A stretch of 18,355 nt of DNA from a virus (lineage: Duplodnaviria > Heunggongvirae > Uroviricota > Caudoviricetes), in the IMG/VR virus record IMGVR_UViG_2534682080_000004, positions 1 to 18,355 of that record; one strand, 5' to 3'. Positions within the stretch are counted from its first letter, which is position 1. Each line of letters opens with the position of its first letter. Below, in pieces: positions 15,714 to 16,296 of the stretch. The translations under genes were made by a program, and so were the position numbers. The notes under the pieces were generated by a model, which saw nothing but the letters and a program-made list of their open reading frames with translations, had not been told where the DNA came from and did not search any database.

Positions 15714-16058
15714 ATGACTCAAAACTATGAACTGATTGTGAAAGGGATCCGCAATTTTGAGAATAAAGTTACGGTAACTTTAGCGTTACGGGACAAAAAA
15801 CGCTTTGACGGTGAAATTTTTGACCTGGACATCTCGCTGGACCGTGTTGAAGGTGCCGCGCTGGAGTTTTATGAGGCAGCAGCCAGAAGGCGCATCAGAC
15901 AGGTCTTCCTGGATGTTGCTGCCGGGTTATGTGAAGGGGATGAGCTGTCGCCGGAAAAGCGCCCCATAATTTTAGAGGCGCAGAATGTGTGGATAACCTA
16001 CAAAGGAAAGCTACCGGGAAGAATTACTGGTTCTCTGAAGACTCCGCCGAAATGGTAA
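15714..16058 (+). CDS. Hypothetical protein between holin and endolysin (114 aa)
   Basis: ATG 5 nt after holin stop with GGAGAG SD; protein-like composition; the position recalls small ORFs found between holin and lysozyme in some E. coli prophages (unverified). Confidence 0.55.
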   Translation: MTQNYELIVKGIRNFENKVTVTLALRDKKRFDGEIFDLDISLDRVEGAALEFYEAAARRRIRQVFLDVAAGLCEGDELSPEKRPIILEAQNVWITYKGKLPGRITGSLKTPPKW

Positions 16059-16296
16059 TTTCACCAGCATATTTTTCTTCCAGTAATACCGCCAGCCACT
16101 TGAAAGAATTTTGTTGTTGCTGGGACCATTTGGGGTTGAGTGATTCAAGCTGGAGCGATGCCAGTGTTGGTTGCATTTGTTCCTTGGGAATTGAGAATGC
16201 CAGATATGAAAATGCGACAGTAAGGGCATTTACATCATCCCGAAGCCTGGAAATGCAGTCGAGCAACTCCTGTAGAGAAATGGTGCTATTGTCCAT
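16024..16296 (-). CDS. Hypothetical protein (about 90 aa), convergent with the preceding ORF
   Basis: ATG at 16296 preceded by SD GAGAGGA; helical, protein-like translation (MDNSTISLQELLDCISRLRDDVNALTVAF...); 3' ends of the two genes overlap by 35 nt. Confidence 0.5.
   Translation of the reverse strand: MDNSTISLQELLDCISRLRDDVNALTVAFSYLAFSIPKEQMQPTLASLQLESLNPKWSQQQQNSFKWLAVLLEEKYAGEITISAESSENQ

Follow-up and report, generated by a model that had tools for sequence, protein, structure and literature searches.

A YdfR-family gene and a convergent, optional small gene between the holin and lysozyme genes of a prophage

YdfR proteins (DUF1327) form a family whose best-described member is that of the K-12 Qin prophage (P76160), encoded in the slot between an S21-type holin gene (essQ/essD) and a lysozyme gene. 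Qin YdfR binds residues 1–597 of RNase E in two-hybrid assays, for which YdfR residues 1–72 suffice; Rne 1–598 co-eluted with Strep-YdfR, DNase-resistant nucleic acid co-purified, and overproduction of the protein altered few transcripts (PMC13232886). The family thus now has an experimental lead, RNase E binding. The closest entries for the second gene considered here, orf90, are the protein cluster phrog_2411, annotated ‘hypothetical protein’, and the RefSeq proteins WP_000370550.1 and WP_000370546.1, which carry the same label; these are the same gene as orf90, with no difference of substance.

Here we analyse the two genes where they meet, in an 18,355-nucleotide (nt) stretch of viral DNA from an E. 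coli prophage (hereafter, the window). Our preferred reading, to which we give a probability of about 0.55, is that they are two independent real genes, a late ydfR gene and an independently transcribed cargo (‘moron’) gene, orf90. Both are already catalogued and abundant, so that neither is new as an object and the finding is an ordinary one. It is also of modest weight as it stands, since E. coli prophages often carry members of both families and even BL21(DE3) has the arrangement.

Architecture of the lysis locus

The holin gene (15494..15709, + strand; stop codon TAA at 15707–15709) encodes a 71-aa class II holin of the S21 type (Pfam PF04971, Phage_holin_2_1, E = 2e-35; PHROG holin families are matched as well), with a hydrophobic maximum (KD19) of 1.72. 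The phage lysozyme gene (16402..16935, +; 177 aa; PF00959, E = 1.4e-24) encodes a hydrophobic, SAR-like N terminus with a KD19 maximum of 1.87 centred at residue 18, and is followed by an Rz spanin gene (PF03245) and then by a gene for a KilA-N protein. Judged by these profile matches (PF04971, PF00959, PF03245), the flanking genes are the standard phage 21-type pinholin/SAR-endolysin lysis set, the SAR segment being predicted. A Q antiterminator gene (12488..12859; PF06530) lies upstream of the lysis genes, and the Q–S slot of the same prophage holds two minus-strand genes that match the NCBIfam equivalogs DS1_2 and DS1_1 of the anti-phage system DS-1. At its left end, the window begins inside a host gene, which is followed by a tRNA-Thr gene.

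Between holin and lysozyme lie the two genes under study. The ydfR-family gene (15714..16058, +; 114 aa) has the orientation of the late/lysis operon; its ATG at 15714 lies four bases past the holin stop codon, with GGGGAGAG standing ahead of it. The convergent orf90 (16024..16296, −; 90 aa) runs from an ATG at 16296 to a stop codon at 16024–16026 and is preceded by the Shine–Dalgarno sequence GAGAGGA (16303..16309, −); an in-frame TTG at 16302 would lengthen the product to 92 aa. The two genes overlap at their 3′ ends by 35 nt (16024..16058). A first-pass annotation of this DNA had described just this layout, a 114-aa plus-strand ORF and an approximately 90-aa minus-strand ORF, convergent, overlapping by 35 nt and interposed between the pinholin and its SAR endolysin. 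All of its coordinates agree with those recomputed here, and both ORFs stand up as real.

Its premise that pinholin and SAR endolysin are normally adjacent does not survive comparison with other genomes where E. coli prophages are concerned. Using the first 262 nt of ydfR (about 87 codons) as the query, we found ydfR-like DNA at 8606 places in 4348 of 5426 complete E. coli genomes. At all loci inspected, in RefSeq genomes, in mEp460, in the Rac remnant of BL21(DE3) and in IMG/VR contigs, the gene lies between holin and lysozyme in the same orientation. In E. coli it is the rule rather than the exception for pinholin and endolysin to be separated by an extra gene.

The YdfR-family gene

The ydfR product matches PF07041 at 141.7 bits (cutoff 25; E = 9e-42), its residues 1–112 aligning to model positions 1–92 of 93. 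It also matches phrog_406 and phrog_2091, and its RefSeq label is ‘YdfR family protein’; PADLOC and NCBIfam gave no match. By profile it is a textbook DUF1327/YdfR member. DUF1327 had been proposed earlier as a family to search, and the plus-strand ORF belongs to it clearly; the accompanying statement that neither product falls into a family that can be named is thus wrong for this ORF, and right for the minus-strand ORF, which has no characterised family.

The first 256 nt of the gene are 96–99% identical even in relatives with a holin only 73% identical, and the 262-nt query, which spans the 72 residues sufficient for RNase E binding, shows 88–99% nucleotide identity to annotated ydfR genes. 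The N-terminal approximately 85 residues of Qin YdfR are highly similar to those of the window protein, residues 1–72 included. The C termini are a different matter: the 114-aa window protein ends in ...NVWITYKGKLPGRITGSLKTPPKW, with a conserved tail, ITGSLKTPP, encoded by the overlap, whereas the 104-aa mEp460-type YdfR, used here as a stand-in for the Qin-like short form (Qin YdfR itself has 103 aa), departs from it at about residue 85 and ends in ...NSSDNSITGC. The RNase E binding is that of the K-12 Qin homologue, whose C terminus differs from that of the window protein. The window protein has no hydrophobic segment and, by analogy with its homologue, is probably a late protein that stays in the cytoplasm and affects RNA decay, and not a lysis effector.

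Coding evidence for orf90

The whole of the orf90 product (residues 1–90) aligns to the whole of the phrog_2411 profile (positions 1–90 of 90) with E = 1.6e-59. We compared 33 distinct alleles from IMG/VR contigs and assemblies, spanning 82.8–100% nucleotide identity. The ORF is unbroken in 30 of the 33. Codon positions 1, 2 and 3 have 32, 23 and 57 variable sites, respectively, and dN/dS between pairs of alleles is 0.13–0.44. These values are blind to strand here, because the third codon positions of orf90 coincide with those of a mirror ORF on the plus strand (15989..16321; 110 aa), antisense to orf90; we therefore used stop-codon occupancy to distinguish the two. The mirror ORF carries one or two stop codons in diverged alleles, the commonest allele (n = 59) included, and the minus-strand ORF is open in the same alleles. 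As the stops break the mirror ORF and not the minus-strand ORF, we chose the minus strand as the coding one. Furthermore, the ATG and the Shine–Dalgarno core GAGGA (in one case AAGGA), 7–8 nt before it, are kept in all 34 distinct upstream variants.

We consider it extremely improbable that the minus-strand ORF is untranslated and owes its conservation to a non-coding element or to the mirror ORF. The coinciding third positions, which give both mirror ORFs similar dN/dS, would suit such an explanation, but the stops in the mirror ORF and the conserved initiation signals oppose it, as do the homologues in other genera, which retain length and motif at 26–45% identity, and the confident helical model described below. 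A scan of 15200..17500 against Rfam (E ≤ 1) returned no match, which also argues against a non-coding element. On this comparative sequence evidence, orf90 is a real protein-coding gene, and a spurious ORF is very unlikely.

Properties of the orf90 product

The AlphaFold2 (AF2) model of the orf90 product (pLDDT 81.8) has helices at residues 8–35, 38–52 and 59–77 and a disordered tail at 81–90. The protein has a pI of 4.34 and no transmembrane segment, the maximum 19-residue hydropathy being 0.88. It is therefore predicted to be a small, acidic, soluble three-helix protein. Its sequence includes the tryptic peptides DDVNALTVAFSYLAFSIPK and WLAVLLEEK.

Searches for function gave nothing to build on. 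No match was found for orf90 in Pfam, NCBIfam or PADLOC, and a Pfam scan of all 52 members of the orf90 family gave no consistent family. PDB sequence searches with each of the two proteins and with the 52-sequence profile yielded nothing below E = 0.3, and across PDB, Pfam and fold searches orf90 had no sequence or fold relative of known function. In the literature and databases searched, no function is recorded for phrog_2411 or its RefSeq accessions.

That orf90 lies within the lysis cassette, flanked by holin and lysozyme, makes a regulator of lysis timing worth considering, be it antiholin-like or an inhibitor of the endolysin in the pinholin/SAR-endolysin pathway, and the arrangement is kept in the plaque-forming phage Chlobot. 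However, the gene is oriented opposite to the lysis transcript, and its acidic, soluble product has no transmembrane or signal segment. It is unlike known holin, antiholin, spanin and endolysin families, and no lysis family in Pfam, PHROGs or NCBIfam matches it. Most S21-type cassettes, those of close relatives included, do without orf90, and homologues occur away from any lysis genes. We regard a role in lysis timing as very improbable. Both ORFs are conserved and neither is a homologue of known lysis accessory proteins, so that the outcome that would have spoken against the first-pass annotation did not arise.

Distribution in E. coli and phages

DNA of orf90 is present in 1221 of 5426 complete E. 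coli genomes (approximately 22%), as against 4348 for ydfR, and about 83% of ydfR places are without it. The Rac remnant of BL21(DE3) carries the gene as ECD_RS07140 (WP_000370546.1), in a gene order identical to that of the window; over the 262-nt query segment its ydfR is 98.1% identical, and the orf90-region DNA of the E. coli B derivative NEBExpress is 99.7% identical. The gene also occurs in three deposited phages, among them Chlobot, an isolated phage. Chlobot and the RefSeq chromosome NZ_CP053787 are 99.7% identical across the whole region, with the order essD, ydfR, orf90, lysozyme. In about 150 viral contigs, the offsets of orf90 to ydfR, holin and lysozyme are exactly constant. A scan of the viral contigs with the most diverged allele (P0036) gave no match. 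One E. coli variant has an intact orf90 next to a ydfR gene that lacks its 5′ 220 nt.

The orf90 family beyond E. coli

Relatives of orf90 were sought with a profile among 1.84 billion representatives and then by a profile word search. Those found are 81–97 aa long and 26–45% identical, with the core ELL..I..LR..(V/L)N.L..AFSYLAF.....(E/K)....(L/I)..L..E(S/A).N. The family has no Pfam entry and spans prophages, plasmids and the Serratia chromosome; the copy in BL21(DE3) makes it easy to study. An 89-aa variant lies on an IncF plasmid beside insertion sequence (IS) remnants and an autotransporter gene, with no convergent partner. In a Citrobacter prophage the homologue is divergent from the holin, and in a Klebsiella prophage it lies opposite the terminase region. 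Several Serratia species have a single-copy chromosomal homologue within the conserved gene order rne, pyrC, dinI, X, bssS, solA; it lies downstream of the dinI terminator and has a Shine–Dalgarno sequence of its own.

The Serratia homologues (for example, P0224 and P0241; 92–93 aa) resemble orf90 in length, match the profile with E of 1e-21 to 1e-23 and share the core ELL..I...R.LN.L.VAFSYLAF...(N)..L...L..E(S/A).N. They differ in being only 30–34% identical to orf90, in being chromosomal rather than prophage-borne and in having no convergent partner, the next gene, bssS, having the same orientation. Since homologues occur on a plasmid, on chromosomes and in other prophages, and since an intact orf90 is found beside a truncated ydfR, we conclude that orf90 is independent of the lysis cassette and of ydfR.

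The main rival to a cargo gene is a functional pairing of orf90 with a tail-bearing convergent gene, here ydfR, in which the protein or an antisense transcript antagonises or tunes YdfR; in the lysogen, for example, such a module could silence a late protein that binds RNase E. We judge such a pairing unlikely, and the evidence on it is divided. In E. coli, orf90 and ydfR always converge, with a constant offset between them. In Citrobacter and Klebsiella, too, the homologue converges on and overlaps a neighbour, an ORF of 62–77 aa; the Citrobacter partner ends in KITGSLRAPIKL, which resembles RITGSLKTPPKW of YdfR, the differences being of synonymous type and outside the reading frame of orf83. 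That orf90 and its relatives in Escherichia, Citrobacter and perhaps Klebsiella always converge on a small gene ending in an ITGSL-like tail hints at coupling. Against a module, however, stand the large majority of ydfR places without orf90, the variant in which orf90 is intact and ydfR is deleted at its 5′ end, and the partnerless copies on the plasmid and in the Serratia chromosomes. By profile, moreover, only 11 residues of the Citrobacter partner resemble YdfR (probability 8%) and the Klebsiella partner shows no similarity, for which reason we rejected the Citrobacter and Klebsiella partners as DUF1327 relatives. No toxin, antitoxin or defence model in PADLOC or NCBIfam matches orf90 or YdfR, and the pairing is not obligatory, each gene occurring alone.

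An optional cassette after the ydfR tail

Alignment of the window with the relatives L172 and L175 and with mEp460 places the approximate limits of the orf90 cassette at 16050..16372 (approximately 325 bp), as judged against cassette-less relatives (116-aa YdfR type, L175). Homology to L175 and L172 stops after ...AAGACTCCGCCG and restarts near CAGAAACCGATAAATCC. The same kind of alignment with relatives shows at least four states of the slot that follows the YdfR tail ...ITGSLKTPP. In the window type, the ydfR stop codon is followed by the convergent orf90. In L175, a 116-aa YdfR is encoded, there is no cassette, and the lysozyme gene lies 63 bp further on. In the long type, a 176/183-aa YdfR (phrog_2091) with a C-terminal extension of 64–70 aa is accompanied by a convergent 86-aa gene, orf86 (phrog_2572). 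In the mEp460/K-12 type, divergence from the window sets in already at about 15975, and in mEp460 the lysozyme gene directly follows ydfR, with no cassette.

The orf86 cassette, present in 314 E. coli genomes (about 6%) and in 8 phage records, has the slot, the convergent overlapping layout and the right flank (GGATATGTT plus the lysozyme leader) in common with the orf90 cassette, whereas its 86-aa protein has no detectable similarity to the orf90 product. We also considered whether orf90 is an inverted copy or homologue of the long-YdfR extension or of the 86-aa gene, and rejected this for want of similarity.

The cassette boundary also bears on the overlap between the two genes. The edge lies about 27 nt before the orf90 stop codon, and the codons beyond it are the antisense of a ydfR tail that was already there. 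Because orf90 runs on past the cassette edge into this pre-existing tail, the overlap looks incidental. It encodes the YdfR tail and the low-confidence C-terminal tail of the orf90 product (residues 81–90); the Citrobacter homologue ends sooner, at 83 aa. There is no terminator and no unusually stable RNA structure at the convergent junction (z = 0.18 and −0.35 for the two strands, compared with shuffled sequences). In terms of the sequence, the 35-nt overlap is most simply explained as incidental, not designed. For a functional pairing this is a further point against, although the orf86 cassette, likewise convergent and overlapping the longer ydfR gene by 53 nt, counts on its side, as does the missing terminator between the genes, owing to which transcription of orf90 would produce RNA antisense to ydfR.

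On the best-supported reading, lambdoid late regions have a second cargo slot at the ydfR–lysozyme junction, in addition to the Q–S slot. With the DS-1 anti-phage system in the latter, the window would then have two cargo slots in one late region. A more elaborate reading takes the interval between ydfR tail and lysozyme leader as a dedicated exchange slot, whose small convergent genes form, with the RNase E-binding YdfR, a prophage switch on host RNA decay. In the lysogen such a switch could be silent or be antagonised, until late transcription released it; the products or antisense transcripts could cooperate with YdfR. The only hint of it is the convergent, overlapping partner with an ITGSL-like tail beside the homologues in Citrobacter and perhaps Klebsiella, and we hold the switch to be quite unlikely.

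Candidate expression signals of orf90

The first-pass annotation was right that the minus-strand gene opposes late transcription, and it placed the promoter that the gene would need in 16297..16401. Here its proposal found less to confirm it: a scan of the minus strand of this interval for sigma-70 consensus sites gave no site at threshold, and weak candidates are all that it contains. These candidate promoter elements, with an inverted repeat, lie within 16311..16385 (−). One is TACAAT (16311–16316), kept in nearly all alleles, with TTGAAT (16336–16341) upstream of it at a 19-nt spacer; the other is TATGTT (16358–16363) with TTATCG (16380–16385), which has a 16-nt spacer and a score of 7/12 and is kept in the orf86 cassette as well. 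The inverted repeat GCCTG-N6-CAGGC (16331–16346) lies upstream of the orf90 Shine–Dalgarno sequence, and different but analogous repeats lie ahead of orf86 and of the Citrobacter and Klebsiella homologues. A LexA box upstream of orf90 or of the Serratia homologues was considered and rejected, no conserved box being visible by eye. No terminator was found 3′ of the orf90 stop codon, the nearest minus-strand site being a weak 5-bp stem at 15698–15685. The GC content of orf90 (44.7%) and of its upstream spacer (38.1%) is lower than that of lysozyme (52.4%) and Rz (52.1%), a modest difference.

A probable late gene and a proposed cargo gene

If ydfR and orf90 are two independent genes, ydfR would be a late gene, read from the lysis transcript that depends on Q and translated immediately after the holin. 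Its product, soluble and cytoplasmic, would bind the catalytic N-terminal half of RNase E and might bind RNA, by analogy with Qin YdfR. To judge from this homologue, it probably acts on the decay of host or phage RNA late in infection, with no step in lysis. The gene orf90 would be optional cargo, its slot being prone to recombination and flanked by the conserved ydfR tail and the conserved lysozyme leader. It would probably be transcribed alone, from a weak promoter in 16297..16401, in a lysogen in which late transcription is off. Its product would act by binding another cytoplasmic macromolecule, a step that we can put only in generic terms.

A sub-case of the cargo reading is that orf90 encodes a prophage defence, superinfection-exclusion or counter-defence protein. 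In its favour, orf90 is cargo on the minus strand at a variable site of the late region, and the genes of the anti-phage DS-1 pair, in the adjacent Q–S slot, share its strand. An inhibitory role is also common among small, acidic, helical proteins of phages, which likewise speaks for such a function. PADLOC models and NCBIfam, however, contain nothing that orf90 matches, and the conserved Serratia site, between housekeeping and stress genes, is atypical of defence islands. We therefore consider a defence function unlikely.

Comparison with lambda morons

The described genes to which orf90 as a cargo gene is best compared are the lambda morons bor and lom. Like these, orf90 is inserted, in some phages only, between genes that stand side by side in relatives. 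Its orientation against late transcription is that of bor, and a Lambda_Bor gene is so placed after Rz in L175. Two marks of a moron are found in orf90: it is present in some relatives and absent from others, and its base composition is distinct, its GC content falling below that of its neighbours. As with morons, too, its homologues occupy several slots and replicons. In other respects orf90 departs from them. It is without a recognisable consensus promoter. It also has no terminator of its own, a feature that makes up one half of the classical moron anatomy, and its acidic product is predicted to be cytoplasmic, whereas Bor and Lom are envelope proteins.

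Alternative cassette and mosaic joint

The interval between ydfR (114-aa plus-strand DUF1327 gene, window 15714..16058) and the lysozyme gene, which holds the convergent 90-aa minus-strand gene orf90 (16024..16296), is occupied by an alternative cassette in 314 of 5,426 E. coli genomes and in 8 phage records. In locus L172, a long YdfR (176/183 aa, phrog_2091; plus strand, L172:3001-3531) carries a C-terminal extension of 64-70 aa and overlaps by 53 nt a convergent 86-aa ORF (orf86, phrog_2572; minus strand, L172:3479-3739), which is unrelated to orf90.

Some E. coli copies of orf90 (protein clusters P0045, P0047, P0050 and P0059) are frameshifted after about residue 58-62, giving 94-aa products with alternative-frame ends (…NNKILSSGWR…), and three singleton alleles contain internal stops; orf90 thus decays in some prophages. 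Downstream of the holin-ydfR-orf90 unit, locus L168 has another lysis set (Phage_holin_8, Phage_holin_3_7 and Peptidase_M15_4); in locus L167, Shiga-toxin genes precede the unit and an IS66 insertion follows it. These arrangements place a mosaic joint between orf90 and the lysozyme gene.

Opposite strand and upstream repeats

Opposite orf90, a 110-aa ORF on the plus strand (window 15989..16321) mirrors the gene, with third codon positions that coincide with those of orf90. This typical shadow ORF has dN/dS values similar to those of orf90, and in diverged alleles stops interrupt it.

Each of the convergent small genes, in the window, in the orf86 cassette and in the Citrobacter (L183) and Klebsiella (L186) prophages that carry orf90 homologues, has a short inverted repeat 40-60 nt 5′ of its start. 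The window copy, GCCTG-N6-CAGGC, lies at 16331..16346 upstream of orf90; the orf86 cassette and the Citrobacter homologue have a near-identical repeat, CGCCAGTG-N5/6-CACTGGCG, and the Klebsiella homologue is preceded by CGACTGTG-N6-CACAGTCG. No T run follows any of the repeats at these four loci. The spacer preceding the lysozyme gene folds better on the plus strand than shuffled sequence does (z = -2.55).

Other features of the window

The interval between the Q antiterminator and holin genes is occupied in the window by two adjacent minus-strand DS-1 genes (404 aa and 391 aa, 12839..15231; 34.7% GC), whereas relative L001 has a porin gene there. Both DS-1 genes match NCBIfam equivalogs: the 404-aa one scores 375 bits with DS1_2_antiphage (cutoff 315), and the 391-aa one scores 451 bits, against a cutoff of 330, with DS1_1_antiphage, ‘nucleoid-associated anti-phage protein’. 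A scan of the DS1_1 protein against PADLOC 2023 returned no model for it.

Embedded in Rz in another frame, a 63-aa plus-strand ORF (17146..17337), a putative Rz1 gene, combines a proline-rich stretch with a lipobox-like LLGVSAC, both features to be expected of an Rz1 o-spanin. The start of the window (1..1444), with a host gene of the aldehyde dehydrogenase family (PF00171) and a tRNA-Thr (CGT; 1369..1444), is probably the prophage-host junction.

Homologues of orf90 in other genera

The orf90 family, which has no Pfam entry, extends to the chromosomes of several Serratia species, where homologues of 92-93 aa lie between dinI and bssS (L179-L182, around 5001-5282). Sodalis, Chania, Gibbsiella, Acerihabitans and Chimaeribacter also have related proteins.

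The homologues in the Citrobacter and Klebsiella prophages each face a convergent small ORF on the minus strand (L183:5239-5472 and L186:5248-5436), with overlaps of 14 nt and 20 nt, respectively, and both partner ORFs begin MTLEQ. The C-terminal end of the Citrobacter partner, KITGSLRAPIKL, resembles the YdfR tail, RITGSLKTPPKW, and this likeness falls outside the reading frame of the Citrobacter orf90 homologue.
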